From Candidatus Moraniibacteriota bacterium (GTDB taxonomy: Bacteria; Patescibacteriota; Minisyncoccia; Moranbacterales; UBA1568): a DNA stretch of 64,000 bases. The stretch spans positions 1,705 to 65,704 of the forward strand of contig JBPOHW010000007.1 of the NCBI GenBank assembly GCA_052035095.1, read 5' to 3'. Within the stretch, counting starts at the first letter, position 1, and each line of letters opens with the position of its first letter. Under the pieces are notes generated by a model. It had not been told where the DNA came from and did no database searches. It worked only from the letters and a program-made list of their open reading frames with translations. The translations under genes were made by a program, and so were the position numbers. Of the stretch, positions 35,560 through 53,456 are shown in pieces.

Positions 35560-37080
35560 TTACTGGTTAATTTCGTTTTCTTTTACTTCATTCTCTGTTC
35601 CCATTTTCTCATTCTTCGCTTCTTCTCCGCCTGTTTCGTTCTCAATTCCCGATTCCTGATTCTCCTCTATCTCTCCTCCATTCTCCATCCCCAATTCTTG
35701 ATCGCCCGTTGTTTGTTGTTCGTTGTCAGTTGTCAGTGGTTCATTGTTCCCCGTTTCCTGCTCATTGTTCATTGTTTCCTGCTCCTTGCTTTTCCTCGTT
35801 CCACTTCCGGCGATATCGATGCGAAGTCCCGTCAACTTGGACGCGAGTCGCACGTTTTGCCCCTTTCGCCCGATCGCCAAGGAAAGCTGGTCTTCCGGCA
35901 CGTGAACGAGCGCGCTCCTGGTTTCTTCGTGGAGTTCCACCTTGCTCACTTTGGCGGGGGAAAGCGCCGCCTTGATAAATTTGTACGCGTCGTCGCTCCA
36001 TTCGATAATGTCGATTTTTTCCCCGCCCAATTCGTCAATGATCGCCTGCACGCGCGTCCCCTTCTGCCCCACGCACGAGCCAATAGGATCAACACCTTCT
36101 TCGGCGGTAAAGACGGCAATCTTGGTGCGCGAGCCCGCTTCACGTGCAATCGCCTTGATCTCCACGACGCCCGAGAAAATTTCCGGCACCTCAAGCGTAA
36201 ACAAATGTCGCACCATCTCGGCATGCGCGCGCGACAACGTGATACCGGGACCCTTGGCGTCCGCCTCGACCCGAAGTATATACACCTTGATCCGCTGTCC
36301 GATACGGTAATTCTCGCCTTCCATTTGTTCCGACGGAAAGAGCGCGCCCACGGATTTGCCGAGGTCGACAAAGACGATCCGCCCGTCGATACGCTGGATG
36401 ATACCGTTCACGATCGTGCCTTCTTTACTCTTGTATTCGGCAAACATACTCTCGCGCTCCGCCTCGCGAATGCGCTGGATAATCACTTGTTTCGCCGTTT
36501 GCGCGGCGACGCGCCCGAATTCCTGCTCCATGGGAAGCGAAAGCTCGATCGTCTCACCAATCTCCGCATCCACCTTCACTAAGCGAGCCTCCTCGAGCGT
36601 CATATCGCGCTCGGCATTAAATCGCGGCAATCGCTCCTCATCACCCTCATCCTCAGTAGAAAGCTCCGCCAATGTTTCAGTCTTCAGATTTTTTTTCTCA
36701 TCATGCGCGTCCTCACGCTTCGCGGGAGTCGTTTCGACTTCTTCCGGCGCTTCCTCGACAAATTCGCGCGTCGTCTCGTCCACCACCTCTTTGAGGAGGA
36801 AGTATTTCGCTGACTTCGTCACCTTGTCAAACTCAGCGCGAATCACCTGCCCGCGCTTCCCATAGTCCTTCTTGTACGCCGCGGCAAGCGCCGCCTCGAC
36901 GACTTCCATCACTTTTTCCTCGGAAATACCCTTTTCCTCAGCAAGCTGCAGCACAGCACTCCCAAACTCGCCCAGCCGAATCGACCCTGATTGCCCGGGT
37001 TCTTTTTTGCCGCCTTCATCCTCATCTTCACCCTCCTCGCGCTCGATATCCTCATCAAGCAGTTTCTTCTTTCGTGCCAT
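35560..37080 (-). CDS. nusA: Transcription termination/antitermination factor NusA with acidic/Gln-Asn-rich C-terminal tail
   Basis: Trimmed to ATG at 37080 ([13 protein letters not shown]). S1 and KH1/KH2 domains ([19 protein letters not shown]; [26 protein letters not shown]). Low-complexity E/Q/N/T tail. Confidence 0.85.
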
Positions 37081-37304
37081 AATAAAAATAGAATTTAAGA
37101 ATTTAGAATATGGAATAAAGAATGTGGAATAAGGGGAGTCAGACAAGGAAAATGCCCCAGATATGCCTTTGATTCACCATTCTTCATTCGCTTTTCGTCC
37201 TTCCATTCATTAAAAAAGGCTCGCTCGCGCGAACCGGACCGCTCCCACCCAAAAACTACCCAGAATATAGCACCAAAGAAGAAGCGTGTCAAATGACGAC
37301 CGTG

Positions 37305-38426
37305 TTACAAAAAGAGATCTCCGAGATACTTTTCCGCCGAAACAACATTGATAGTGCGAAAGGAAGCTTCACGTTTTAACTCTTTGACCACTTGCGTTCC
37401 TTTGATGTCATACTTACTCGAAAAATAGGTGAGGTTTTGGCTTGGCTCACTTTCCGAGAGTTTCGCCTCGATAAGTTCAGTGACAGTTCCATTTTCAACC
37501 AGAGCAAAATCCGTTTCTTTTCCTTCTTTTGTCCGGAAATACTTAAGTTCGTATTGCTTTCCGGTTGCATCCGAGAGCGCAGAAACATGTTTGAAAAGAC
37601 TTATGGCGACAAAATTTTCAAACCTCGCTCCCCCATCCCCTTCGACAAGTCCGGTATCAAAGAAATATACTTTTGGTTCTTTGAGAATTGAGCGGGCGAT
37701 ATTGCGCGAATACGGCGTGACGCGAAATACAATGAAAAGCGATTCAAAAATTTCCAGATAGCGCTTCACGGTAATCGGAGACACCTGAACATCTTCGGCA
37801 ATCGAATTGAGAGAGAGTGGCGACCCGACACGACGCCGAAGAAGTTCCAGCGTCATTTGCACCGCTTTCAGGTTATGCACCATCTCGAAATCCAAAATAT
37901 CAGTTCGAATGAGGCCATCGAAATACTGGTTTCTCCACCGGGTAGCATCTTCTTCCGTTTCAGCCAAAAACGGTTCCGGAAAACCGCCTCGAGTAATAAG
38001 CCTCTCTATATCGGCAGGCTCTCCGATATGTTTCAGCTCCGCCAAAGAGAACGGAAGGAGGCGATGAACAAAAAACCTCCCCGCAAGCGAATCGCCAGCT
38101 TGCCGAAACGTATTCATTCGCGCGCTTCCGGTTACCAATATTTTAAGAGAAGGCGCTTTCGTGTCAAAAACGCCCTTCAGATAATTTTTCCATCCTCGCA
38201 TTTTATGAAGTTCATCAAGGATAAGAAGCGTTGTGCCAAGAGGCCACGCCTCTTTTTTAATAATCTGACGATCTTCTTCTCGATCAAAATTCAAATAGAC
38301 GGGAGAAGCGTCTGTTTTTCCTATTTCTCTCGAAAGCCACGTCTTTCCAACCTGGCGAGGACCCACCAGAAAGACCATCTTTTTATCGAGGTCTTTGAGA
38401 ATACGTTCTGTTTGTGCGCGTTTCAT
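37305..38426 (-). CDS. AAA+ ATPase (AAA_14/DUF4143-type)
   Basis: Walker A GPRQVGKT and Walker B LILDELH. C-terminal DUF4143-like region. Confidence 0.75.
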   Translation of the reverse strand: MKRAQTERILKDLDKKMVFLVGPRQVGKTWLSREIGKTDASPVYLNFDREEDRQIIKKEAWPLGTTLLILDELHKMRGWKNYLKGVFDTKAPSLKILVTGSARMNTFRQAGDSLAGRFFVHRLLPFSLAELKHIGEPADIERLITRGGFPEPFLAETEEDATRWRNQYFDGLIRTDILDFEMVHNLKAVQMTLELLRRRVGSPLSLNSIAEDVQVSPITVKRYLEIFESLFIVFRVTPYSRNIARSILKEPKVYFFDTGLVEGDGGARFENFVAISLFKHVSALSDATGKQYELKYFRTKEGKETDFALVENGTVTELIEAKLSESEPSQNLTYFSSKYDIKGTQVVKELKREASFRTINVVSAEKYLGDLFL

Positions 38427-40777: not shown

Positions 40778-41707
40778 TCACGTCGTCGCTGGCGCGAAAA
40801 ACTCCGCAATTTGTCGAACGATGACGAGCGACGCGAGCGCGACCACGATACCGAGGAGTGCAAAAGTGACAATCTTCTTCGCCACCCCGATCCGATTCAT
40901 ATCCCCTGCCGCGCCGAGGAACATAATGCCCCCGATAACGAGGAAAATAATCGCGAGAATCCCTACGATTCCAAGAAGGAAATTGAGGACCGAGAGAAGG
41001 ATATCCGCGGCGCTCTTTGCACCCGAGACCTCCGGCGGAACCGTGCCGCCCCAGCCCAAGACCGTCGCGATTTCCTTGAGGAAGGTCGGCGCCAAAATCC
41101 CGATCGCGAGCCCGATGAGGGCCGCCGTGATCGCGAGCTTCGCCGCCGTCACCTGCGACTGTCGCCCGCCGGACGTAATGTACAAGACCGCTCCAATCAC
41201 GATAAAGACGAGCGAAAGCACGACAATGACACCCTGCAAAGCATACAACAACGCTGTCAAAACTTCTTGTACCGTATCATATTTCAAGGGATTGGGAAGC
41301 GTTATGCTCACCGACGAGCCGGATCCGGTTGTTGTCCCTCCACCACCCGTACCCCTTGGGGGACAATAATTTGGTTTCGTTGGATCCGTACATATAGATT
41401 TGCATCCTGTCTGTGTCGTATCATCATCCGCAGTACAAGTTGTCTTACAATAACTCGCATTGCACGTGGAGGAAGAACTGCTTGTTTCGCAGCAAATATA
41501 CCCTTCCGAACTACTGCAATTATCAAACGTTCCCGATTTAATAACTCCAGGAGAGGGGCAGGTTTCTTGGCATACGCATGTTTTTCCGCTACTGCATGAT
41601 GCCTGACATGTCGCCGCTTTTGCCCCTTCCGGTGCCACTGCAAACGCCCCCAACACCAGCACCCCCAACACGGCCGCTACCCTCCCAAATTGTGCCATTG
41701 TTTCCAT
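40778..41707 (-). CDS. Cys-rich secreted protein fused to two tandem TrbC/VirB2-like pilin modules
   Basis: Signal peptide (METMAQFGRVAAVLGVLVLGAFAVAPEGAKA). Roughly 110-aa Cys/Ser/Thr-rich region (CQASCSSGKTCVCQETC...), Gly-rich linker, then two pilin-like hydrophobic hairpin modules (…LYITSGG… and …MFLGAAGDMNRIGVAKK…). Confidence 0.65.
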   Translation of the reverse strand: METMAQFGRVAAVLGVLVLGAFAVAPEGAKAATCQASCSSGKTCVCQETCPSPGVIKSGTFDNCSSSEGYICCETSSSSSTCNASYCKTTCTADDDTTQTGCKSICTDPTKPNYCPPRGTGGGGTTTGSGSSVSITLPNPLKYDTVQEVLTALLYALQGVIVVLSLVFIVIGAVLYITSGGRQSQVTAAKLAITAALIGLAIGILAPTFLKEIATVLGWGGTVPPEVSGAKSAADILLSVLNFLLGIVGILAIIFLVIGGIMFLGAAGDMNRIGVAKKIVTFALLGIVVALASLVIVRQIAEFFAPATT

Positions 41708-41723
41708 AATGAGTAGTGAGTAG

Positions 41724-41741
41724 ATAGTAGCGAGTAGATAG
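41724..41741. repeat. Left 18-bp terminal inverted repeat (ATAGTAGCGAGTAGATAG) of the four-helix-bundle cassette; embedded in AGTAGNN heptamer tandem repeats
   Basis: Exact reverse complement at 42229..42246. Region 41711..41741 reads gagtagtgagtagatagtagcgagtagatag. A second arm at 41774..41793 forms a long hairpin with 41719..41738. Confidence 0.8.
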
Positions 41742-41802
41742 AAAATAAAATGTTTTCTACCTACCAAATACTGTCTACTCGTTGCTATCTACTGATAAAT
41801 AC

Positions 41803-42180
41803 CTAAATATTATTCCTGACAGACTTCATTAGGCCGGAGAGAATTTTACTTACCTGTATCGTTTCCTCAGCAAGGGCGTCAAAAATATTTCTTTCAAGAA
41901 ATCCGATATCTCGTGCAATAAGCAGTTGGTTTTGAAGTTCAAAAATAGATCCTCTGGAAATAGCGTAAAATTGAAGTTTTTCTTTGGAAGAGCTCCTGCC
42001 AAATCCCTCTGCAATGTTGGAAGTAATGGAAATAGCACACCGACGTATCTGATTCGTAAGAGAAAAAATTTCCGCCCTCGGAAAAGACTCAGTTGCCCGA
42101 TAGACTGCAAGCACCAATTTGTGCCCTTTCTGCCACACTACCAAATCCGTAAAAGACTGTATTTTTGATATATCGCCCAT
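41803..42180 (-). CDS. Four-helix-bundle protein of the 'S23 ribosomal / rRNA intervening-sequence protein' family (PF05635-like)
   Basis: 125 aa. MGDISKIQSFTDLVVWQKGHKLVLAVYRATESFPRAEIFSLTNQIRRCAISITSNIAEGFGR... Local base composition is more AT-rich than the flanking pilin genes (by eye). Confidence 0.65.
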   Translation of the reverse strand: MGDISKIQSFTDLVVWQKGHKLVLAVYRATESFPRAEIFSLTNQIRRCAISITSNIAEGFGRSSSKEKLQFYAISRGSIFELQNQLLIARDIGFLERNIFDALAEETIQVSKILSGLMKSVRNNI

Positions 42181-42228
42181 ACAACCAAATACTGAAACAC
42201 CGAATGTTCTCTTGCTAGATACTCCCTA

Positions 42229-42246
42229 CTATCTACTCGCTACTAT
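42229..42246. repeat. Right 18-bp terminal inverted repeat (CTATCTACTCGCTACTAT) of the four-helix-bundle cassette
   Basis: Reverse complement of 41724..41741. A 10-bp direct repeat CCAAATACTG (41764..41773 and 42185..42194) flanks the ORF just inside the IRs. Confidence 0.8.
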
Positions 42247-42248
42247 TC

Positions 42249-43091
42249 TCACCCTCCCCACGCCGTCCCGCGCAACAAAGCATCGATCGCGATAATAATC
42301 ACGAGCCCGGCGAGCGCAACAATCACGCCCACGATGGAAAATTTCATATTCCGCTTCGCGGTCTCGATCATATTCATATTCCCCGCCGCCGCCAAGTACT
42401 GAATGCCCGAAATCACAAACGCGATAATCGCGAGGAATCCGAAGAGATAGAGCATCCACTTCATAAGATTGGTGACGATAAGCGCCACCGACGTTTCGGA
42501 GAGCCCCGTATTGAGCGGGAAACACACCCCCGCGTATTCCTTGAACTTCGCCGGATCGCACTTCACCGCCGTCGTCCCCGACCCGGTAGTACCACCCGTC
42601 TTGCAAAACTTCTTATTTGTCGCTTGTGAAGCGCATTGCGACGCACTGCACGTCGTATCCTCAGTCTCCCCCGTCACGCAAGCCGCCTTACAACCCCCAC
42701 CGGTACAGGATGAGGAAGAAAGGGTTTTACAACACACCAATTTATTATCTAAAGCTCTGCAATAACCATTGTCAGTAGAAACGGTAGTTTTTGGAGATAC
42801 ACAACCGGACATACTCTCACACGAACACGTCCCACCCGAACCGCAATTGCTGGTACAAGTGTTTCCGGAAGCAGTGACACAACACACTTGACCCAAACTG
42901 GATTCACAGTGATCTGAATCTGGACCAGATATTCCGGAAGAACACGTAGCACTCGCGGGAATACAGGTTCCGCTGCTCCCATTGTACGTACATGTCTGAG
43001 CAAAGACATCTCTGCCAAAAAACAAAGCCCCTGCTACAATGAAGCAAGAAAAAACAAAACTCAAAAACGAAATTCTCTTCATAAGAAACAT
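42249..43091 (-). CDS. Cys-rich secreted protein fused to one C-terminal TrbC/VirB2-like pilin module
   Basis: Trimmed to ATG at 43091 (MFLMKRISFLSFVFSCFIVAGALFFGRDVFA signal peptide); TGATG overlap with the upstream pilin gene. Roughly 150-aa Cys-rich region, then …GIQYLAAAGNMNMIETAKRNMKFSIVGVIVALAGLVII…. Confidence 0.65.
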   Translation of the reverse strand: MFLMKRISFLSFVFSCFIVAGALFFGRDVFAQTCTYNGSSGTCIPASATCSSGISGPDSDHCESSLGQVCCVTASGNTCTSNCGSGGTCSCESMSGCVSPKTTVSTDNGYCRALDNKLVCCKTLSSSSCTGGGCKAACVTGETEDTTCSASQCASQATNKKFCKTGGTTGSGTTAVKCDPAKFKEYAGVCFPLNTGLSETSVALIVTNLMKWMLYLFGFLAIIAFVISGIQYLAAAGNMNMIETAKRNMKFSIVGVIVALAGLVIIIAIDALLRGTAWGG

Positions 43092-43465
43092 CAAAAATAC
43101 GAATCGGCGCTCAACCACACATCGACTGCCTGAACGATCACGTACCCCATCAGCGCGACAATCACCCCGACGATAGACCACTTCATCGCTTCTTTGGCCG
43201 TTTTGATCTGACCGTCATTTCCGGCGGCCGTAAGATAGAGGATGCCCGAAATCACAAAGCCGATAATCGCGATGAAGCCGAGAAGTCCAAGGATCCAATC
43301 CATCGTACTGCCCGCGATATCAATAATAGGCGCAACTGGCAATCCCGACTGCATCGGCCCCGTAAGCGCCGGGTTCTCCCCCGTCTGCGCAAGCGCGCCA
43401 AGTGGCAGAAGCGCCATTCCCCCAGCTATTCCCCTCCGAACCCGCGAAACTATTGTGTGTTTCAT
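43091..43465 (-). CDS. TrbC/VirB2-like small pilin-family membrane protein
   Basis: 124 aa. Signal peptide, then two hydrophobic helices separated by LYLTAAGNDGQIKTAKEAMKWS. Paralogous to 43555..43926 and 44105..44485. Confidence 0.7.
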   Translation of the reverse strand: MKHTIVSRVRRGIAGGMALLPLGALAQTGENPALTGPMQSGLPVAPIIDIAGSTMDWILGLLGFIAIIGFVISGILYLTAAGNDGQIKTAKEAMKWSIVGVIVALMGYVIVQAVDVWLSADSYF

Positions 43466-43554
43466 ACAATATATTTAAAATAAGCTTTTTTCACTTTAAC
43501 GAAGACCAGCCTACCGGCAGGCAGGAATGCGCGAAGTGAGAAAATCTTAAAAGA

Positions 43555-43926
43555 TCAAAATGTTATTTCTCCCCCAAGCCACAAATCAACTGCTTGTATA
43601 ACCACGTACCCAACAAGCGCGACGATCACCCCGACGATAGACCATGTCATGGCGGTTTTCGCCGTTTTGATCTGACTGTCATTGCCTGCCGCCGTGAGAT
43701 AGAGGATGCCGGATATGATAAAACCGATAACGGCAAGAAACCCGACCAAGCTCAACATCCAGAGCATAAGATTGGAAACGATGCTATCGACACCACTCGA
43801 AGGAAGTCCGGATTCGGTCTGGAGCGTGCCGGACTTCGGATCGGACCACTGCGCAAGCGCCGGATGCGCAAGAAAACTCCCCGCCCCCAAAAAGAACCCC
43901 CTTGAAAAAATCTTCACGAATTTCAT
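43555..43926 (-). CDS. TrbC/VirB2-like small pilin-family membrane protein
   Basis: 123 aa. …GFIISGILYLTAAGNDSQIKTAKTAMTWSIVGVIVALVGYVVIQAVDLWL…. Confidence 0.7.
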   Translation of the reverse strand: MKFVKIFSRGFFLGAGSFLAHPALAQWSDPKSGTLQTESGLPSSGVDSIVSNLMLWMLSLVGFLAVIGFIISGILYLTAAGNDSQIKTAKTAMTWSIVGVIVALVGYVVIQAVDLWLGGEITF

Positions 43927-44104
43927 ATATCAAATTGTACCACAAAAAAAGAAAATTCGAAAAAAAATTATTCCACACGAACCATAAAGAGAAAATATTT
44001 CCTGTCAAGCCCTCATTCTTCATTCACCATTCTCCATTCCTCCTCCAAAACCAAAACGCCCCCGAAAATCGGGAGCGCCTCGGCAAGAAATCTTCGAAGA
44101 ATTC

Positions 44105-44485
44105 CTATATATTCGTATTCGAACTCGCGTTGAGCCACGCATCCACCGCTTGTACGATGACATAGCCGACGAGCGCCACAATGACACCCATAATGGAATA
44201 CATCATCGCGGACTTCGCCGATTTGATCTGGTCTTCACGTCCCGCCGCCGTGAGATAGAGAATACCCGCGATCACAAAGCCGATAATCGCGATAAAGCCG
44301 AGAATGGCGAGGAGATAATTCATGGTCGTCCGAATGATCTCATAGATAGACGAGTCCGGCGTCCCGCCGCTTGCCGCGTTGTTGTCACCCACCGACCACT
44401 GCCCAAACGCCACCATCGGCACTGCCATAAAAGCAACCACCAACGCGAACGCGCCGATATTTTTGAAAATAAGCGATTGTTTCAT
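44105..44485 (-). CDS. TrbC/VirB2-like small pilin-family membrane protein
   Basis: Trimmed to ATG at 44485 with strong SD AGGAGGT. …GFVIAGILYLTAAGREDQIKSAKSAMMYSIMGVIVALVGYVIVQAVDAWL…. Confidence 0.7.
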   Translation of the reverse strand: MKQSLIFKNIGAFALVVAFMAVPMVAFGQWSVGDNNAASGGTPDSSIYEIIRTTMNYLLAILGFIAIIGFVIAGILYLTAAGREDQIKSAKSAMMYSIMGVIVALVGYVIVQAVDAWLNASSNTNI

Positions 44486-44546
44486 ATGTTCTCTCACCTC
44501 CTTTCTGAAAAGAATAACTGCCAACTCACAACCTCCAACAGGAAAA

Positions 44547-44903
44547 TTATTCAAAAAACTTTGCAATCGCCAGTACCAAGATGAAAGCTCCCAATCCCAC
44601 CGCGACGCCGATCACTCCCCACGTAAACGCCTTCTTGGCAAGCTCCAATCGCGCCGTGTTGCCACCCGCCGTAAAATAGAGTATCCCCGCAATTACGAAC
44701 GTAAGTATAACAAGAAATCCGAATATCTCCAACAAAAAGTCAAGCATCCGCAAAAACGCCTGTGCCAAAGTCGGCGCATCATCAATCACCCCGGCGGCGG
44801 AAACCTCAAACGTTCCCGCTCCACAAAGCAGAAATAACAAGAGTACGCACACCCCGAGAACCCGCGTAAAATTTTTTCTCGAAAAGATCATAGAAAATTC
44901 CAC
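44547..44903 (-). CDS. TrbC/VirB2-like small pilin-family membrane protein (divergent paralog)
   Basis: 118 aa. …LTFVIAGILYFTAGGNTARLELAKKAFTWGVIGVAVGLGAFILV…. Confidence 0.65.
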   Translation of the reverse strand: MEFSMIFSRKNFTRVLGVCVLLLFLLCGAGTFEVSAAGVIDDAPTLAQAFLRMLDFLLEIFGFLVILTFVIAGILYFTAGGNTARLELAKKAFTWGVIGVAVGLGAFILVLAIAKFFE

Positions 44904-44915
44904 AAAGTTCTTCTT

Positions 44916-45539
44916 TCACGAAATCCGTTCTTTGGTTTCAAGTGTAATTGCCGCCGTGCCAATATATTGGCTCACTTCTTGCGTAAGCGACTCCAAATAC
45001 CGTGGAAATTTTTTGGCGTACTCGGCGAACTTTTTCCGACCTATGGAGCGAAGATCCAATTCTTGTAAGCCCATATTCCCTTTCCCTCGCGCTACCATAT
45101 AGAGCATATCCAGAAGCGCCTTCTCCGGTTCGGCAATGTACATGCCATTTTCCAGCCGATACCCGAAAAAAAGATTTTCCTTCACCTGCCGAAATTCAAT
45201 CGCCGTACCGAAAATACTCATCCTCTTGGTTTGTTTGAGCGTTGCAAACGTCTCCGTCGCCGGCATTTGACTCAAAATTCCATACCGAGAAAGCGCGCTC
45301 TCAAAAGAGAGATAGGACGGGTAGTAGAGTTGATTGGCGATTTTCGGTACATCGATAAGTGCCGCGCTCGAGGCATACACGCCGCGTTTCAAACGAGTGA
45401 GCGCGCCCTTTTCCGTCAAGCGAGAAACCGCCACTTTCAAACTCGGTCGCGAAAGCGCGGTTATCTTCTCCAAATCGGCCACCGTAAAGTAGTCTCGATT
45501 CAATGTCTGCAATCTCTGCATGAAGTCAAAGGTGGTCAT
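44916..45539 (-). CDS. abiEi: AbiEi-family type IV antitoxin / transcriptional regulator (wHTH N-terminal domain)
   Basis: Trimmed to ATG at 45539 (ATGA overlap with the abiEii stop). MTTFDFMQRLQTLNRDYFTVADLEKITALSRPSLKVAVSRLTEKGALTRLKRGVYA is the typical AbiEi N-terminal fold. Confidence 0.6.
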   Translation of the reverse strand: MTTFDFMQRLQTLNRDYFTVADLEKITALSRPSLKVAVSRLTEKGALTRLKRGVYASSAALIDVPKIANQLYYPSYLSFESALSRYGILSQMPATETFATLKQTKRMSIFGTAIEFRQVKENLFFGYRLENGMYIAEPEKALLDMLYMVARGKGNMGLQELDLRSIGRKKFAEYAKKFPRYLESLTQEVSQYIGTAAITLETKERIS

Positions 45540-46216
45540 AGACTTTCTTTCTTCAGCCAACGGTCGAGGAGTTGCCACTTCCCTTGCGGCAAGAGCCGGT
45601 GCAAATCGCCGCGCACCTCATGTACCGAATACTTCCCAAAATTCATCTCGGGTGACTCGCCGCGCTGACTCCTGATAAACCACAAATCGAAAATATCACG
45701 AACACGAAGCGGATCGATACTCTCTTTTTCCCGTTCAATTTGCGCGATGGTCGCCACTTGCGCCAAAACCGTTACCGGAGTCACCTCGCTCGAAAGCTGT
45801 TTGAGAATATAATCCTCATTCTGTCGCCATTCTTTTTTTCGACGTGATATTTCCACCTTGATGCCAAGCGGACGCTCTAGCGTCGGATCGGTAATCACAA
45901 AACGAGCATAGAGCGTATAGTATTTCTGCAAAGCTTCATCAAGAGCAACATACGGTACGGACTTCGCCGTGTCATGGCACCACTCTTGAAACTTCGGAGC
46001 GGAAATATCGACGAGTTGCGTAAAATCCAAATCATCGGAGTATCGGTACGACCCATACGCAAGTCGAAGCGCCGTCCCTCCGCGAAAAACAAGATCCTTC
46101 CCGAAGTTGCTCTCAAAAATACGGCTCAAAAGAAGCATTTCATACTCTTCCCACACGATACGATCCACCGAGATTCCCAGCTGTTTCTGCTTTTCCAGTG
46201 CCAATTGTTTGTTCAT
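45536..46216 (-). CDS. abiEii: AbiEii/AbiGii-family nucleotidyltransferase toxin (DUF1814)
   Basis: FRGGTALRLAYGSYRYSDDLDF NTase motif. 226 aa. Lies upstream of abiEi, which reverses the canonical order. Confidence 0.65.
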   Translation of the reverse strand: MNKQLALEKQKQLGISVDRIVWEEYEMLLLSRIFESNFGKDLVFRGGTALRLAYGSYRYSDDLDFTQLVDISAPKFQEWCHDTAKSVPYVALDEALQKYYTLYARFVITDPTLERPLGIKVEISRRKKEWRQNEDYILKQLSSEVTPVTVLAQVATIAQIEREKESIDPLRVRDIFDLWFIRSQRGESPEMNFGKYSVHEVRGDLHRLLPQGKWQLLDRWLKKESL

Positions 46217-46414
46217 ATAGTTATAAGATAGTTAACAAATTCGTTAACTTACCTATAAGTATACGCAACTCCCTCTTTCCTGTCAATCCCATAATTTTCG
46301 CGGCATCAAATTCAGTTTTGTATGCAAAACCAGACAAAACTGAATTTGAATTTCTGTCATTCCTTTCCAAATACCTGCAATTTTCTCAATCAGGAAGAGA
46401 GCACTTCACAACAC

Positions 46415-46942
46415 TTACTGCGGTATCACCCTCCCATTCGGACACGAGCTAAACCCGAAATTCACACCCGCGTATTCATCTCCCTCGATAGCGGAAACGG
46501 TTTCGTGAATATCAAGCGCGCAAGCATCTTGAGCCGAAACGCCCAACATTTCCAAGAGCTCCTTTTCGGCATTCACGCGAACATCAACGCTCGGAATCGA
46601 ATTAAAGGCGATAAAAAATTGACGGAAGGGATTGATATAGCTGATTGAATATTCGGGTTTTTCCGAGAGAATTCTATCTCCTTGAGGATTAATCGGCTCT
46701 TTTTTTACCAAGAAGTCCTTCGTAAGAACCTCTCCCGTTTTTCCTATTCCTTCAATAACGAAATATCCATTCGGATTTTTTTCCGGAAGTGGACGGGAAA
46801 AATCATTCGAGATATCCGGCGGCGCATTCAAGAGCTTCCAAACCTGAACAACAACAAAAAGAATAATAGCAATCAAAACAAGCGCCCCAACAGAGAGAAT
46901 GAGTTTCCTATTTTGAATAAGAAAATATTGTGATACAGGCAT
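46415..46942 (-). CDS. Hypothetical membrane-anchored protein
   Basis: Trimmed to ATG at 46942 (MPVSQYFLIQNRKLILSVGALVLIAIILFVVV). 175 aa. Confidence 0.5.
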   Translation of the reverse strand: MPVSQYFLIQNRKLILSVGALVLIAIILFVVVQVWKLLNAPPDISNDFSRPLPEKNPNGYFVIEGIGKTGEVLTKDFLVKKEPINPQGDRILSEKPEYSISYINPFRQFFIAFNSIPSVDVRVNAEKELLEMLGVSAQDACALDIHETVSAIEGDEYAGVNFGFSSCPNGRVIPQ

Positions 46943-46977
46943 AAGAATTTTTCTTAAAACAAAAATCAAATCCCTCA

Positions 46978-48516
46978 TCAGAGACCGCAGCGCTTCTTTG
47001 TAACCGGCCACGGTCCCCACCCGCTTTGTTTATATAAAGTGCACGCCGCTGAAATATTTTTTGCCGCGTCCATAGCCCGTTGCGAACACTCGGTATATTT
47101 GGCGCGATTTATTACTGAACATCCCCACCCACATACATAGGTAACTCCTTTGCTATTTGTACAACGCTTTTTTGCGCCACCATTATTCCCTGCACTTCCA
47201 TTTTCCAATGAAAATACATTCTGCCAACAACAATCACTCCCCAACATACACCCGTTGGCAATAATATTGAGCTGAAAAAGCCCGAATGAAAACCGGTCGC
47301 CACTCTCATTTTGACATCGATCCGTATTGCTCGCCGCCGCCGTATTTCCACCTGACTCGACATTACACACCTTCGAAGCTGCTTCCGCGTTCCATGAGCA
47401 CGCTTTCCCAAGGTTTTCTGTCGTACAATACCCCGAAGTGATCACCGAACACGATCCATTTCCTGGTCCTCCGCCACTTCCGCCGTCCCCTCCACCCCCA
47501 CCGCTCCCACCTGTACCACCTGTTCCGCCAGTTCCCGTATATTTCGTCTGCGTATCGCAACTATACGTAAACCACGATCCGTTCGTCTTGATAGAAAAAC
47601 TCGCCGTATCGCTCCCCAGCGTCCCGTCCGCCAAGACCATCAGAATCACATTGATCGCGACCCATCCGAGAAGAACAATCGCAAGCCCAACCAACGCCGC
47701 CCAAATACCCGATTTCGCAAGACCCGTCAATTGCGGCTTCCCGGTCGAAACAATATAGAGTATCCCCATCGCGACCAACACCGCAAAGGCGATATACGTC
47801 ATCACCATCAGGATCCAATTGGTAATATTTTGAATAAGGATCAACAGGTGACACAGCGTGCAAATTTTCGTCTCGTCATCCGAAGTGGCAGGGTTATCGC
47901 ACGATCGCCCGCACGGCACGATCCCGGGATTTTCAGATCCGGAACACGTGGTTGCCGTTCCGCCATCACCTCCTCCGCCGCCGGAAGGCGTATAACAACA
48001 CGCGACTCCGTTCGCGGCACACCCCGACGCCCCCGTAAGCGCCGTCCCCGACGAACACGTCGCGCTCGTCGAGCACGACCCCGTCTGCATCGTCCCACTT
48101 GCATCTTTGCCGGTACAGGGAGTACTGTTTGGAGCAGACTTACAGCACTTTCCCTTTGTTATAGTCAAAGAAGCACACTGCCCATCACTGCCGGAAACAG
48201 GAGTATCGCCACTTTCACACGCGCTTTTACATATTCCTTCCCCACCGGTACTACAGAAAAACGCCGTCGTATTTGGAACACAGCAGTCCCACAACCCAAC
48301 ACCACCCGCAGTACATGCTCCGGTCGAATCATCCCTCGAAAGCTCATTCGCGTTACATCCGGGAGTACTCGGGCGACATTCTCCAGAATAAGACTTCCCT
48401 GTAGAGGTATCGTTAAACGTGCAGCTTGCCGCAGAAACAGAAAAAGTGAACACAAAAAACATCAGAAGCATGTATACTCCCAGCAAAAAAGAAAAATATT
48501 TCTTCAAAAATATCAT
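46978..48516 (-). CDS. Large Cys-rich secreted protein with an internal TrbC/VirB2-like pilin module and a C-terminal Rpf/transglycosylase-like (lysozyme-fold) domain
   Basis: 512 aa. Signal peptide. Cys-rich and Gly-rich regions. Pilin module (ILMVMTYIAFAVLVAMGILYIVSTGKPQLTGLAKSGIWAALVGLAIVLL). C-terminal CNVESGGNTAAASNTDRCQNESGDRFSFGLFQLN resembles the Rpf / transglycosylase-like motif C-E-S-G-G-N...G-L-F/Q-Q. Confidence 0.65.
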   Translation of the reverse strand: MIFLKKYFSFLLGVYMLLMFFVFTFSVSAASCTFNDTSTGKSYSGECRPSTPGCNANELSRDDSTGACTAGGVGLWDCCVPNTTAFFCSTGGEGICKSACESGDTPVSGSDGQCASLTITKGKCCKSAPNSTPCTGKDASGTMQTGSCSTSATCSSGTALTGASGCAANGVACCYTPSGGGGGDGGTATTCSGSENPGIVPCGRSCDNPATSDDETKICTLCHLLILIQNITNWILMVMTYIAFAVLVAMGILYIVSTGKPQLTGLAKSGIWAALVGLAIVLLGWVAINVILMVLADGTLGSDTASFSIKTNGSWFTYSCDTQTKYTGTGGTGGTGGSGGGGGDGGSGGGPGNGSCSVITSGYCTTENLGKACSWNAEAASKVCNVESGGNTAAASNTDRCQNESGDRFSFGLFQLNIIANGCMLGSDCCWQNVFSLENGSAGNNGGAKKRCTNSKGVTYVCGWGCSVINRAKYTECSQRAMDAAKNISAACTLYKQSGWGPWPVTKKRCGL

Positions 48517-48572
48517 ACAAGAAGAATCAGAAGCCTCCTGCTCATTGAAAATTGATCATTGCAAATTTTGAT

Positions 48573-49949
48573 TCACTTCCTCCCCACTTGCTGTATGCGA
48601 CTCTCGGCGGTGGCAAGCGCTTGCGGAATATTCGCTTCACCCAGATTGACCGAGCGGATCATATCGCCCAAAATTTTCTCGATACTCTCCGGATCCGCCT
48701 GTTTCCAACTCCGCGCGATGAGATTGCCATCGGCAAAGGGACCGAGGATTGGATCGGTTTTTTGTTTTTCGATGAGATCGCGGCGCGCCGCGGGGCGCTT
48801 CGTCTTCGCGAGATAGCTTTCCGCCGGATCAAAGGTTGTCGGGAAGTCCCGCGTATTCCCCGTAAGCGCGTTTTGCAGCGTTACCGTGCCACCATTTGGG
48901 AACGCGATATACTTCAAAAATTGCCATGCTTCGAAAATACGCGCCTTGGAATAGAGCGCAACGTCCTGTGTCCCCGCGGGCGCCGTCTTGTTCTTCGCAA
49001 CCGAAAATCCCCAGTAATTGGGGAAATTGAACGGCTGGGCGCCCAAGGGCTGTGGAAGAGGCGCGACCCCGAAATTCAATTTGGAATTCTTCCGCTTGAT
49101 AGTGTCGTAGTGCCAGGAATAGTTGATCATCATCGCCGCTGTCCCCTCATAGAAGGCATCGATCGAGTAGTGCATCACCGGATTCCACGTATAGAGCGAC
49201 GAGGTGGGGTTGGCGAACCCCGTATAAAACGAAAGCGCGTTCACGCCCGGAGCGCCGGTCAACCGGAGATCATTGCTCCCGCCGCGCGGCACCAAGACGC
49301 CGTTTTGGAGAAAGAGCGCCGAGAGGACATCGGTCGAGCGATTGATATTCGCGGAGGTGCCGAGCGCAACCCCCGACTGCGTTATTTCCCCGAAGGAGTT
49401 GATGCGCGTCAAGAGTCGCACATCGTCTTGAAATTCATCCCACGTCACCGGCGGTCGCGCGATGCCGACCGAGGAGAGGATGTCTTCGTTATAATAGAGC
49501 GCGAGCGAATCCGCCGAGAGCGCGACCCCGAGTATTTTCCCGTCGGTCGCGACGAAATCATCCCCGACCGTATCCACAAACACGTTCCGATAGGTACGCT
49601 CGTCGATCATCCCCTCGGGCGCCGTCACGATTTTGTCGGCAAAAGCCGGCGTCCAAGAATTGCGCACCAAGAAAATATCTGGTCCATTCCCCGCCGCGAG
49701 TGCGTCCAGGAGATCCTGGCGATACGTGTCCACATTGAATTTCCGATAGACAATCTCCCCGACATTCGTATTCATTTCTTTATACTTCCCGATCACCTGC
49801 TGAAACGCGTCCGAATCGTCAAAGACGCCCCATACTTCGAGGTTCATCCGATACTTGGTCTCCGAAGTCCGCAAACCGCACCCCGAAAGCGAAAGCGTCA
49901 CCACCCCAAGCACCACCCCGACCACAATTCTCCCAAAGACCTTCTTCAT
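48573..49949 (-). CDS. Extracellular solute-binding lipoprotein (ABC transporter SBP family 1-like), orphan
   Basis: Lipobox LSLSGC after the signal peptide. 458 aa. SBP_bac_1-like composition. No permease or ATPase genes adjacent. Confidence 0.7.
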   Translation of the reverse strand: MKKVFGRIVVGVVLGVVTLSLSGCGLRTSETKYRMNLEVWGVFDDSDAFQQVIGKYKEMNTNVGEIVYRKFNVDTYRQDLLDALAAGNGPDIFLVRNSWTPAFADKIVTAPEGMIDERTYRNVFVDTVGDDFVATDGKILGVALSADSLALYYNEDILSSVGIARPPVTWDEFQDDVRLLTRINSFGEITQSGVALGTSANINRSTDVLSALFLQNGVLVPRGGSNDLRLTGAPGVNALSFYTGFANPTSSLYTWNPVMHYSIDAFYEGTAAMMINYSWHYDTIKRKNSKLNFGVAPLPQPLGAQPFNFPNYWGFSVAKNKTAPAGTQDVALYSKARIFEAWQFLKYIAFPNGGTVTLQNALTGNTRDFPTTFDPAESYLAKTKRPAARRDLIEKQKTDPILGPFADGNLIARSWKQADPESIEKILGDMIRSVNLGEANIPQALATAESRIQQVGRK

Positions 49950-50001
49950 ATCGCTTTTTTATTTTTTGGTACATTGACACCTTCCATTCGAGAAACCACC
50001 C

Positions 50002-50184
50002 GAAAACGTCTGATTTTGAGTGCAGTTCGACCCGCTTCGCCAGAGCTACAGCGAGGCGAGGGAAGATGTGCGGAGTGGAATGAATTGTTTGGGAAACAAT
50101 TCATTGTATGTAAACATACAGCGTCCCCGCCGAGGCGGGGGAGCATCTGATCCCGCCAAGGCGGGACCAAAATCAGACGTTTTC
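50002..50184. repeat. Intergenic hairpin cluster bounded by a 17-bp perfect inverted repeat (GAAAACGTCTGATTTTG / CAAAATCAGACGTTTTC)
   Basis: Contains a 12-bp perfect hairpin aatgaattgtttGGGaaacaattcatt (50079..50105), the dyad tgtatgtaaacataca (50104..50120), and GC hairpins ccccgccGAGgcggggg and tcccgccAAggcggga. Confidence 0.8.
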
Positions 50185-50185
50185 G

Positions 50186-50729
50186 TCATTTCTCGCACAC
50201 CAAGGCGTAGTGATAATCCCCCGCCGCAATATCCTTAACCGGAGAAAACCCGCATTCGGAGAGCATTTCAGTCAGTTTCGCGCGCGGAATCCGAAGCGAC
50301 TTCTCCGGTCCAAACGACGCTTCCGATTCATTCCATTCCATAATAAACAAAAATCCGCCGGGCTTGAGCACTCGATACGCCTCCCAGAGCATAATCGGCT
50401 TGTTCCTATTCTGAAAGAGCACATCTTTGAGAATGACCCAATCGAGACTCCCATCCGGCAATCCCGAGCCTCCTTCGCGTTCCAAATTGGCGCGCTTCGC
50501 GACAACATTCTTGAGTCCGAGCGCCTTCGCGCGGCTCGAAACCGCCTCGAGTGACGACGGTAAAATATCGAGCGCGTAAACGACTCCCTTCTCCCCGACC
50601 GCCCGCGCAAACGCAAGTGAAAAAAATCCCGATCCGCACCCGAAGTCCGCGACCGACGCATTGGCAAGCATATCCAACTGATCAAGAACCTCTTCCGGCT
50701 TGACAAAACTATTCGTCAACATCGTTCCC
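50186..50729 (-). CDS. Class I SAM-dependent methyltransferase
   Basis: Trimmed to ATG at 50729 (MGTMLTNSF...). Motif I VADFGCGSGFFSLAFA and post-I acidic residue (YALDIL). Confidence 0.75.
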
Positions 50730-50844
50730 ATAAAAAAGAAGGTTGAAATATTTTCTTGCAAAAAGAACAACCGCATTGTACAACAGAAAGCGTAGGGGCG
50801 CAAAATTTTTCGCCCTTCCCAAAACACATATTGTCAATGGTCTA

Positions 50845-50929
50845 ACGGAGAGGTCGCATAGTGGCCGAGTGCGCTCGCTTGGAAAGCGAGTATACCGCAA
50901 GGTATCGGGAGTTCGAATCTCCCCCTCTC
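50845..50929 (+). tRNA. tRNA-Ser (anticodon GGA), long variable arm, no encoded CCA
   Basis: ggagaggtcgcatagtggccgagtgcgctcgcttggaaagcgagtataccgcaaggtatcgggagttcgaatctccccctctccg. Anticodon loop uuGGAaa. T-arm GGGAGTTCGAATCTCCC. G73. Confidence 0.85.
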
Positions 50930-51007
50930 CGCAGAAAAAGTCCCTTTACAAAGCCGCGAAAAGGGTGCTACAGTGAGGGAAGAACGAAGAGAAATAAGGC
51001 TTTTCCT

Positions 51008-51592
51008 ATGCAAGGCGCGGGTTTTTTGTTGACACCGACGGCATTTTTGGGAATTTCCGCGACACTTCTCGTTCTGTTTCTCTTCATGGCGTTTTTCATC
51101 TGGAGACTGTTTCGCGCAACGCGAACGCTCGAGGAACGGCAAAAGATGTTCCTGAAAGGCAAAGACGGCGCCGATCTCGAGGCGGTAATCTCGCGCCATG
51201 ACAAGGAGATCGGAAATCTCGATACGGAAATTCAAGAGCTCTTCGAAATTTCCGAAAAAATCCGCGGACTCGCGATGATCGGCATTCACAAGGTCGGCAT
51301 CGTGCGCTTCAATCCCTTCCAGGATACCGGAGGCAATCAAAGCTGGAGCATCGCGCTCCTCAACGGAAGCGATACCGGTCTCGTCATTTCCTCCCTCCTC
51401 TCCCGCGAATCGGCACGAGTCTACGCCAAACCCGTCATTCAGGGTCACCACGGAGACTTCCCCCTCACCGCCGAGGAAAAGCGCGCCATCGAACTCGCCC
51501 GAAAGCCGAAAGAACTCACAAAAAAAGCACCAAATTCCAATCCGCCAGTTGGCGGACAAGTTCCAAATAATTTCCAAAGTTCAAAAACGTAA
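51008..51592 (+). CDS. DUF4446-family membrane-anchored protein
   Basis: ORF 50861.. overlaps tRNA-Ser, so trimmed to ATG at 51008 (MQGAGFLLTPTAFLGISATLLVLFLFMAFF). IVRFNPFQDTGGNQSWSIALLNGSDTGLVISSL...RVYAKP matches the DUF4446 signature. Confidence 0.65.
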   Translation: MQGAGFLLTPTAFLGISATLLVLFLFMAFFIWRLFRATRTLEERQKMFLKGKDGADLEAVISRHDKEIGNLDTEIQELFEISEKIRGLAMIGIHKVGIVRFNPFQDTGGNQSWSIALLNGSDTGLVISSLLSRESARVYAKPVIQGHHGDFPLTAEEKRAIELARKPKELTKKAPNSNPPVGGQVPNNFQSSKT

Positions 51593-51698
51593 ACGAAAAC
51601 GCCGCAAAAAAAATATGTTTTCGCTTTGTTTTTCATTGCTGGTTAGTTATTGAGTATTATTTGTATCTTGTAATTTGGAATTTGTTATTTCTCTCCCT

Positions 51699-53456
51699 AT
51701 GGATGAACCCAAAAAAACCGTCAAAATTCCTTCATCCGTCTCCGTGAAACGTCTCGCGGAAATTTTCGGTATGCCGGTCTCCTCGGTCATTATGGAGCTC
51801 ATGAAAAACAAGATCCTGGCAACCATCAATGAAGAAATAGACTTCGAAACCGCGAGCATCATCGCTCAGGACTTGGGGTTTGAAACCGAGGAAGACCTCG
51901 AAACCGGCGAGAGCGACACCTTTACCCTCGAGCGACTCCTCGAAATCTGTGCCCAAGAAAAAGCCTCCGGCAAAACGCTCGACAAACGCCCGGCGGTCGT
52001 CACCATACTCGGGCACGTCGATCATGGCAAAACCACCCTCCTCGATACGATTCGCAAAACCAATGTCGCCGGCAAAGAAGCGGGCGGCATCACGCAAGCG
52101 ATGAGCGCCTATCAGGTCAAAAAGCGCGGGAGCATCATTACATTCATCGACACACCCGGTCACGAAGCCTTCTCCTCAATGCGCGAACGCGGGGTCGCCC
52201 TCGCCGATATCGCCATCCTCGTCGTTGCCGCCGACGACGGCGTCCGCCCTCAGACCAAAGAAGTCATTTCCTACATCCTTGAACACCATATTCCCGCCAT
52301 TGTCGCCGTCAACAAAATCGACAAACCCGAAGCGAATATCCCGCGCGTCAAACAAGAACTCGCCGACAACGGCATCCTCATCGAGGAATGGGGCGGGACC
52401 TACCCCTTGGTCGAGATAAGCGCCAAACACGGCAAGAATATCGACAAACTCCTCGAGCATATTCTCTTGGTCGCCGACATACACGACTTCCGAAGCGATA
52501 CCAAACGCGACGGACTCGGCATCGTCCTCGAATCGCACCTCGATCCGCAAAAGGGTCCCGTCGCTGTCGCCCTTGTCAAAACCGGCACGCTCAAAGTAGG
52601 GCAAGACATCACCGTCGGAAGCGCGCACGGGCGCATCCGTCGACTCGAAGACTTTGCCGGCAAAAACATCGCCGTCGCACTCCCTTCAACCCCCGTCCAG
52701 CTCTATGGCTTGAGCGCGGCGCCCAATACCAATGACGTGGTCCAAGTCGTGGGAAGCAAAATCGCCGCGCGCCTCAAGTCTCGCGAACGTATGACAGGGA
52801 GCCTCGGCAAGAAAGAGCTCCAAACCGTCCAAGAAGACGGCGTCAAGAAATTCCCCCTCGTCGTCAAGGCGGATGTTCACGGCTCACTGGAAGCCTTGGA
52901 GCAAATATTCGGCACGATTCCCGCCGATGAAATCACGCTCGATATCGTCTCTCAAGGCGTGGGCGCCATCACCGAGTCCGACGTCAAAATGGCGGAAAGC
53001 GCCGGCGCGCTTATCGTGGGCTTTAACGTTGTGCCGACTCCCGTCGCGAGCCGTATGGCGGAAAGCGCGAAAATTGAAATACAGAGCTTCAGCATCATCT
53101 ACAAACTCGTCGAATTCGTCAAAGAAAAACTCTCCGCTCTCCTCCCGCCCGAAATAATCCGCACCGACCTGGGCGCGCTCGCCGTCCTTGCTGTCTTCAA
53201 AACCGGCAAACACGATATGATCGTCGGCGGCCGCGTGAATAACGGCAAAATCGTGAAGGGTTCGCAGATCGAAATACGGCGCGATGACGAAATCATCGGC
53301 ACGGGACGCCTCGCCAATCTCCAGCAGAACAAAAAGAACACCGATGAAGTAGGGAGTGGCAACGAATGCGGCCTCACCGTCGAAACCACAACCAAAATCC
53401 ACATCGGCGACACCCTTCTCTCCTTCACCATCGAGGAAAAACGGAGAACACTGTAA
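51699..53456 (+). CDS. infB: Translation initiation factor IF-2 (short form)
   Basis: ATG at 51699 (ORF track extends to a TTG at 51675). G-domain motifs GHVDHGKTTLLD, DTPGH, NKID. C-terminal beta-barrel domains. Confidence 0.9.
   Translation: MDEPKKTVKIPSSVSVKRLAEIFGMPVSSVIMELMKNKILATINEEIDFETASIIAQDLGFETEEDLETGESDTFTLERLLEICAQEKASGKTLDKRPAVVTILGHVDHGKTTLLDTIRKTNVAGKEAGGITQAMSAYQVKKRGSIITFIDTPGHEAFSSMRERGVALADIAILVVAADDGVRPQTKEVISYILEHHIPAIVAVNKIDKPEANIPRVKQELADNGILIEEWGGTYPLVEISAKHGKNIDKLLEHILLVADIHDFRSDTKRDGLGIVLESHLDPQKGPVAVALVKTGTLKVGQDITVGSAHGRIRRLEDFAGKNIAVALPSTPVQLYGLSAAPNTNDVVQVVGSKIAARLKSRERMTGSLGKKELQTVQEDGVKKFPLVVKADVHGSLEALEQIFGTIPADEITLDIVSQGVGAITESDVKMAESAGALIVGFNVVPTPVASRMAESAKIEIQSFSIIYKLVEFVKEKLSALLPPEIIRTDLGALAVLAVFKTGKHDMIVGGRVNNGKIVKGSQIEIRRDDEIIGTGRLANLQQNKKNTDEVGSGNECGLTVETTTKIHIGDTLLSFTIEEKRRTL

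Follow-up and report, generated by a model that had tools for sequence, protein, structure and literature searches.

Candidate phyla radiation (CPR) proteins in which the Pfam domains T4SS_pilin (PF18895) and SLT_3 (PF18896) occur together are the described proteins that come closest to the gene studied here. This gene is located at 46978..48516 on the minus strand of a 64,000 nt stretch of Candidatus Moraniibacteriota DNA (contig JBPOHW010000007.1), which is referred to as the window. Like those proteins, its 512-aa product has a signal peptide, a hairpin of two transmembrane (TM) segments, a linker and a Cys-rich domain with an E-S...GLFQ motif. The window protein is ~170 aa longer because of its N-terminal six-Cys repeats; its C-terminal domain has an inserted beta-sheet and, taken alone, lies below both Pfam thresholds. 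Judged from its sequence, the product is a lysozyme-like domain on a pilin anchor, an architecture that is not rare in CPR. We propose, with a probability of about 60%, that it is a polymorphic, surface- or pilus-displayed putative muramidase for the wall of another cell, accompanied by a cognate inhibitor as its partner. No description of a pilin-lysozyme fusion, its function, its partner family or its cassette exchange was found in the literature.

Lysozyme or SLT domains are likewise tied to components of type IV secretion systems (T4SSs) in the VirB1-type hydrolases, which include VirB1, TrsG/TraG of pIP501, PrgK, TcpG and CD419, and those of monoderm bacteria are membrane-anchored like the window protein (PMC12102498). 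VirB1-type hydrolases are separate proteins inside the T4SS cluster, often with an SLT+CHAP composition, and are not fused to a pilin. The window domain, in contrast, forms one protein with a VirB2-like module and varies among strains together with a putative cognate partner, and its gene lies in a pilin-only locus between infB and nusA rather than as a separate gene in a T4SS cluster.

Two further groups of systems resemble the locus in the arrangement of genes. In contact-dependent antagonism by the Xanthomonas X-T4SS (X-Tfe/X-Tfi) and by type VI secretion systems (T6SSs; Tge/Tgi, Tse3/Tsi3), a wall-degrading enzyme stands beside a small envelope-located cognate protein with which it co-varies, and the window pair would be alike. 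Those effectors are soluble and injected by a machine, whereas the window enzyme would be covalently part of a pilin-like membrane protein, and for partners of the window type no homology to families of known immunity proteins or lysozyme inhibitors could be detected. The polymorphic toxins CdiA-CT/CdiI, Rhs-CT/RhsI and LXG share with the window locus a conserved N-terminal region, a sharp breakpoint and a variable C-terminal domain that is swapped as a unit with the next gene between nearly identical strains. The breakpoint in the window is a Gly-rich linker, not a VENN, PxxxxDPxGL or LXG-type motif, and all cassettes seen in the window family are predicted wall hydrolases, either SLT_3-like or SLT-like. 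To our knowledge, a VirB2-type pilin hairpin has not been described as a presentation module of polymorphic toxins.

The C-terminal lysozyme-like domain, of SLT_3 type, comprises aa 352-512 (46981..47463, minus strand; 161 aa with 14 Cys) and was delimited by profile, conservation and model. It contains the motifs CNVESGGN (aa 384-391) and SFGLFQLN (aa 410-417). Among 1.84 billion cluster representatives, a profile built from nine C-terminal domains matched 1,111 clusters at E<=1e-3, of which 693 had E<=1e-10, with matches down to E=1e-61, and the domain was nearly always located at the C-terminus. In 89 of 160 domain proteins it was preceded by a signal peptide and two hydrophobic helices, the typical length being ~330 aa. 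As shown by a Pfam scan of 118 relatives, one by one, T4SS_pilin was present in 92 (78%), SLT_3 in 81 (best E=1.6e-10) and SLT (PF01464) in 6. The preliminary description of this gene had regarded a pilin and a murein hydrolase in one polypeptide as an unusual architecture. The joining of a pilin hairpin to a lysozyme-superfamily domain was supported by the Glu-Ser and G-L-x-Q residues and by the SLT_3 relatives. Its rarity was not: with 1,111 cluster representatives and a T4SS_pilin module in 78% of the sample, the fusion is unusual only relative to classical T4SSs.

An alignment of 156 homologous domains, mostly representatives of 50%-identity clusters, was used to determine conserved residues. 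In the numbering of the window protein, C356, E387, D399, G412, Q415, W503 and C510 were invariant. Conservation of at least 95% was found for S388 (99%), G390, S396, S410 (99%), N417 (98%), C429, C477, N487 and A491. The catalytic-Glu-type motif noticed earlier is thus not a product of chance. E387 (codon 47356-47358) is the candidate catalytic residue, and the invariant Glu with an invariant Asp 12 residues later (D399, codon 47320-47322) would fit a two-carboxylate muramidase or a lytic transglycosylase equally.

The family to which the domain belongs was determined through its relatives. When the isolated domains of nine relatives were searched, all nine matched SLT_3 over the E-S...GLFQ core with 19-29 bits. 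Together with the profile matches and the 81 of 118 relatives with SLT_3, this shows that the window domain is homologous to members of PF18896. The earlier assignment to an Rpf/transglycosylase-like domain stands as far as the lysozyme superfamily is concerned. Its Rpf part was rejected: PF06737 (Rpf/Transglycosylas) did not match the query under either limit, E<=1 and E<=10, and was not among the 16 families listed for the 118 relatives (E<=0.01). The profile searches then proposed as a check found SLT_3 and SLT in relatives but no match to the window domain itself. By these comparisons, the SLT_3 lysozyme-like family is the one to which the C-terminal domain is related, as a divergent form that carries an insert.

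Structure prediction, also proposed earlier, suggested the same assignment. An AlphaFold2 model based on a 60-sequence alignment reached a predicted local distance difference test (pLDDT) score of 96.2 and a predicted template modelling (pTM) score of 0.88; the model from a 9-sequence alignment (pLDDT 60.7) was not used. In the model, E387 (E36 in domain numbering) is located at the C-terminal end of helix 26-37 and is followed by beta strands. This beta region holds D399 and GLFQ, and after it come an inserted beta-sheet (strands 84-117) and three C-terminal helices. The best Foldseek match among the predicted viral structures of BFVD was an SLT-domain protein (E=0.013, probability 1.00), and 11 of the top 20 matches bore SLT, LT_GEWL or lysozyme names. 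Against the PDB, where no match was significant, a c-type lysozyme ranked first, followed by DslA, alpha-lactalbumin, MltE and MltF. The modelled Glu at a helix end, the beta region and the G-L-x-Q-type groove motif are those of the lysozyme superfamily. Like c-type and i-type lysozymes of GH22, the window domain would have a small, disulfide-rich fold with an acidic pair in which the Glu is at a helix end and the Asp, 12 residues later, is in the beta region. The Glu-Asp spacing is also 12 in the i-type lysozyme of Tapes japonica. The window domain differs from GH22 lysozymes in being bacterial and pilin-fused and in its extra beta-sheet insert, and no comparison with them was significant.

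The second conserved part of the protein is an internal VirB2/TrbC-type pilin module (aa 216-300; 47617..47871, minus strand), recognised from a PF18895 match, from the pilins of neighbouring genes and from its hydrophobic segments. It consists of a CxxC motif (aa 219-222), TM1, a predicted cytoplasmic loop STGKPQLTGLAK and TM2. PF18895 matched aa 227-290 weakly (E=0.0099), and the score of 16.4 bits did not reach the gathering threshold of 26.6 bits. A hidden Markov model (HMM) built from five adjacent pilin genes of the window, four of which are above the Pfam PF18895 threshold, matched aa 227-295 at E=2.9e-9 (1.6e-6 against all open reading frames, ORFs). The GILY...G...AK loop motif is common to the fusion protein and the neighbouring pilins, and the close homologues P0002, P0004, P0005, P0009 and P0011 carry a precomputed PF18895 match. 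The two-helix module that the preliminary description had placed inside the 512-aa protein consists of two hydrophobic helices with a short conserved loop and is homologous to bona fide PF18895 members.

Downstream of the module, aa 301-351 (47464..47616, minus strand) comprise the conserved post-pilin segment KTNGSWFTYSCD, in which C320 occurs, and a linker rich in Gly. The exchangeable cassette described below has its left breakpoint here. The CxxC before TM1 (47851-47862) and C320 after TM2 (47557-47559) recur in distant members of the family, for example as TCNTCH ... QVEC in L017. This suggests a disulfide clamp linking both extracellular ends of the pilin hairpin.

The C-terminal domain is exchanged between strains. 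An initial search gave 37 full-length relatives, all metagenomic and one named Candidatus Moraniibacteriota. The same body was found in all of them, with at least four types of C-terminal domain, the window representing type A. Types B-D have the motif GE...CG(Y/V/I)SQ...CYNxG and are themselves SLT-like: PF01464 matched 6 of 17 (best 8.8e-5), and their sole PDB matches, neither significant, were two lysozymes, including the i-type lysozyme 2dqa. The exchange is clearest between L006 (type C) and L008 (type A). Nucleotide identity of these loci is 95.6% up to codon ~379, which lies in the Gly/Ser linker, and 97.4% once the first pilin gene is reached; the DNA separating these two parts shows no similarity. 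Exactly the C-terminal domain and the partner gene were exchanged as one block.

Comparison of the window with its closest relative, L003, gave a similar picture. Nucleotide identity was 95% over 48452-52000, 90% over 47516-48117 and 91-93% in the pilin array. Similarity stopped at 47516, in the post-pilin/Gly-linker segment, and 44813-47515, comprising the C-terminal domain, the partner gene and an inserted AbiE pair, was unmatched. A second block, 48118-48451, was hypervariable, with zero nucleotide similarity to L003 between flanks 90-95% identical; it encodes aa ~22-133, including the first two Cys-rich repeats. Among homologues, the N- and C-terminal regions vary as independent mosaics around the conserved pilin core. 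For P0008, identity is 95% in the pilin module, 36% in the C-terminal domain and 38% in the partner protein, and for P0003 it is 36% in the N-terminal region and 97% in the C-terminal domain. By these values, the identity of the partner tracks that of the C-terminal domain and not that of the pilin.

The partner gene of the window, called alpha here, is located at 46415..46978 on the minus strand. It encodes an N-terminal TM anchor and a ~130-aa domain, predicted to be extracellular, with two invariant Cys. Its ATG overlaps the stop codon of the fusion gene (TGATG, 46976-46980), which suggests translational coupling of the two genes. A second possible ATG is present at 46942, corresponding to the start of the L008 alpha orthologue 43 nt downstream. 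In a different partner, beta, the signal peptide is followed by a domain, a Cys-rich motif and, at the C-terminus, a TM segment. Type A loci (window, L008 and L003) are followed by alpha and loci of types B, C and D (L005, L002, L006 and L007) by beta. The C-terminal type thus predicts the partner class in all seven syntenic loci (3 alpha, 4 beta; Fisher exact p = 1/35).

Eight further type A loci were found in Saccharibacteria, Kaiserbacteria, Paceibacteria, Moraniibacteriota and other Patescibacteria. An alpha homologue was located directly downstream in all seven of these with downstream sequence (E=1e-28 to 1e-63), so that alpha lies directly 3' of a type A domain in 10/10 loci overall with downstream sequence, which come from several CPR phyla. 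In the reverse test, which started from three alpha proteins, a gene for a pilin with a type-A-like domain was found immediately upstream in all three cases. A conserved N-terminal region with a sharply bounded variable C-terminal domain at an orthologous locus, and a directly downstream gene that co-varies with this domain, are features of polymorphic toxin systems, and the locus shows both.

Pilin proteins with other heads were also observed. L018 contains tandem paralogues (309-1238 and 1244-2260) whose first ~158 aa are nearly identical, one with an M15/VanY-like head (recognised by eye, H..D...H) and the other with an SLT_3-like head. In L019, a gene at 1923-2894, directly after an alpha gene, encodes a T4SS_pilin + VanY (PF02557) protein.

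Several results weigh against the view that the protein is a displayed muramidase with a cognate inhibitor. The window C-terminal domain alone matches no Pfam family (E<=10) and no NCBIfam or PDB sequence; it misses the PF18896 gathering threshold (27 bits), and its assignment is transitive through homologues. The family profile had no significant hhalign match to hen egg-white lysozyme, all Foldseek matches in the PDB and BFVD were weaker than E<=0.001, and pancreatic ribonucleases rank first (E=0.04-0.5) when the PDB is searched with profiles of 9 or 60 aligned sequences. The hhalign comparison of the type A profile with the type B-D profile was also not significant, and the two were therefore handled as separate families. 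The counts behind the association of domain and partner are small. Neither alpha nor beta has a match in Pfam or the PDB, known lysozyme-inhibitor and immunity families included. The pilin-VanY and pilin-M15-like paralogues of L018 and L019 have no adjacent partner gene of their own, and a partner is therefore not universal for pilin-tethered hydrolases. Finally, virB4, virD4, virB6 and other T4SS machinery genes were not found among the scanned genes of the window or within +-10 kb in syntenic genomes, and a link of the protein to a secretion apparatus or a pilus is hypothetical for this reason.

Of the other explanations, a housekeeping function of VirB1 type survives best. A tethered glycosidase would open the producer's own wall for assembly of the pilin array or a T4SS-like structure, and the downstream protein would be an assembly factor or an autolysis regulator, not an immunity protein. 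Autolysin regulators exist, and the membrane tether would put the enzyme beside the cell's own wall. The fusion gene is located at the head of the pilin array in every syntenic genome (L002, L003, L005, L006 and L008). In CPR, VirB1 homologues are poorly linked to virB4, with often none nearby, and other glycosidases have been suggested as substitutes (PMC12102498). However, a housekeeping enzyme does not predict that non-homologous domains and their partners are swapped between strains with 95-97% identical flanks, nor that the N- and C-terminal regions are mosaic on either side of a pilin core that is conserved, and the T4SS machinery that it would serve was not found nearby. We consider this function less likely than a displayed muramidase with a cognate inhibitor.

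It is also conceivable that the protein is a non-catalytic adhesin, in which the lysozyme fold survives solely as a host-wall-binding lectin, comparable to alpha-lactalbumin, a relative of lysozyme that is not lytic. Alpha-lactalbumin ranks near the top of the PDB fold matches, adhesins typically have a pair of variable domains outside the cell, and for cultured CPR epibionts adhesins are essential (PMC10633639). Such a lectin is improbable, since E387/D399 and G-L-x-Q are strictly invariant in 156 diverse sequences, as expected for catalysis, and a dedicated co-varying partner is hard to square with it. It is barely credible that the domain is a toxin of an RNase A-like or other non-lysozyme kind, or that the motif arose by chance in a low-complexity tail rich in Cys. 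The ribonuclease matches are not significant, extend over no more than the Cys-rich second half and leave out the invariant E-S...D...GLFQ core; RNase A catalysis requires two His and no His is invariant in the family. These matches were therefore judged an artefact of the Cys pattern. Fold searches yield SLT and lysozyme proteins but zero RNases, relatives match SLT_3, and the 1,111 homologues rule out a chance motif.

For the favoured reading, a displayed muramidase with a cognate inhibitor, the following mechanism is proposed. The fusion protein would be exported by Sec, and its VirB2-like hairpin would serve as an anchor in the cytoplasmic membrane or make the protein a minor, decorated subunit of any filament formed by the neighbouring pilin array. 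Both Cys-rich parts, the N-terminal repeats and the C-terminal domain, should be outside the cell because the signal peptide would be cleaved and the hairpin would follow, and a composition of disulfide type is consistent with this. The disulfide-rich C-terminal domain is predicted to cleave glycan strands of peptidoglycan, with E387 at the helix end as candidate general acid and D399 in the following beta region. The target may be the wall of the host of an epibiotic CPR bacterium or that of a competitor. The partner would most plausibly be a cognate extracellular, membrane-anchored inhibitor, keeping the wall of the producer safe. A class A penicillin-binding protein (PBP) gene at 21858-23861 indicates that the producer synthesizes peptidoglycan itself, and self-protection is plausible for this reason.

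The N-terminal part of the protein was also delimited. The fusion gene begins with ATG in its 512-aa form, and its product has 38 Cys. The signal peptide (aa 1-29; 48430..48516, minus strand) was read from the sequence as MIFLKKYFSFLLGVYMLLMFFVFTFSVSA followed by AS, with a KK n-region, a hydrophobic core and an SVSA site. The Cys-rich N-terminal region (aa 30-215; 47872..48429, minus strand), predicted to be extracellular, contains, by its Cys positions, three ~46-aa six-Cys repeats with CC ends at aa 78-79, 124-125 and 173-174, and had no Pfam match. The start codon in the 48471-48516 stretch is ambiguous. ATG 48516, with AGGAGG 15 nt upstream, gives a canonical signal peptide and is conserved in homologues, and the 512-aa start is supported by the alignments of P0006, P0010 and P0021, which begin at residue 1. 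The public gene call P0001 begins instead at M16 (ATG 48471), where a GGGAG Shine-Dalgarno sequence is nearer and better spaced. Single-sequence searches of Pfam, NCBIfam and the PDB with the whole protein gave nothing beyond the weak T4SS_pilin match. In a promoter/terminator scan of 44800-48800, counts were no higher than in shuffled sequence.

The locus is flanked by infB (51675-53456) and nusA (35560-37146), with a solute-binding protein gene upstream of the fusion gene. In related genomes the order is infB, DUF4446, a methyltransferase gene, the solute-binding protein gene, the fusion gene, a small membrane protein gene, about six pilin genes and nusA. The pilin array of the window spans 40778..44903 and comprises six more genes with a pilin module, oriented like the fusion gene (44547-44903, 44105-44566, 43555-43926, 43091-43465, 42249-43181 and 40778-41767, all on the minus strand), identified by PF18895 matches or the HMM of window pilins. 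The genes at 42249-43181 and 40778-41767 encode long Cys-rich N-terminal extensions like the six-Cys repeats of the fusion protein, and in the 329-aa protein among these two, pilin modules occur in tandem (aa 165-235 and 251-325). VirB2 arrays of this sort were reported in CPR genomes in a survey (PMC12102498). In Southlakia, a cultured CPR epibiont and the one species tested, T4SS-like genes and pilin arrays are essential (PMC10633639).

Other genes lie within or beside the array. An AbiEii toxin gene (PF08843, 45536-46216) and an AbiEi antitoxin gene (PF13338, 44916-45578), both on the minus strand, are located between alpha and the pilin array. The pair looks like a recent insertion, because it is absent at the equivalent position in L003, where the pilin genes come directly after alpha. 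Between two pilin genes, 41803-42180 (minus strand) encodes a 23S rRNA intervening-sequence protein, which matches PF05635 (E=9e-37) and is also bAvd-like. An AAA_14 + DUF4143 ATPase gene (37305-38426, minus strand) is situated between the array and nusA, and the same gene occupies the same place in L003.

A wider interpretation is offered tentatively, at less than even odds. In CPR, VirB2-type pilins may scaffold polymorphic wall-degrading heads of SLT_3-like, SLT-like and M15/VanY-like types, each lysozyme-type head being paired with a cognate membrane-anchored inhibitor. Such a putative contact-dependent system, previously undescribed, would breach the walls of hosts or rivals, and its strain-specific cassettes would be exchanged through recombination in the Gly-rich linker. 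The fusion proteins are now annotated as 'pilin' or 'hypothetical', and the NCBI label of one member of this family is simply 'pilin'. Alpha is an unannotated protein family that could represent a lysozyme inhibitor class of its own. It has been proposed that the host envelope is opened by lytic enzymes (PMC11665869). For the way in which ultra-small CPR/Patescibacteria attach to their hosts and draw resources from them, a pilin with its own putative muramidase suggests a direct mechanism.

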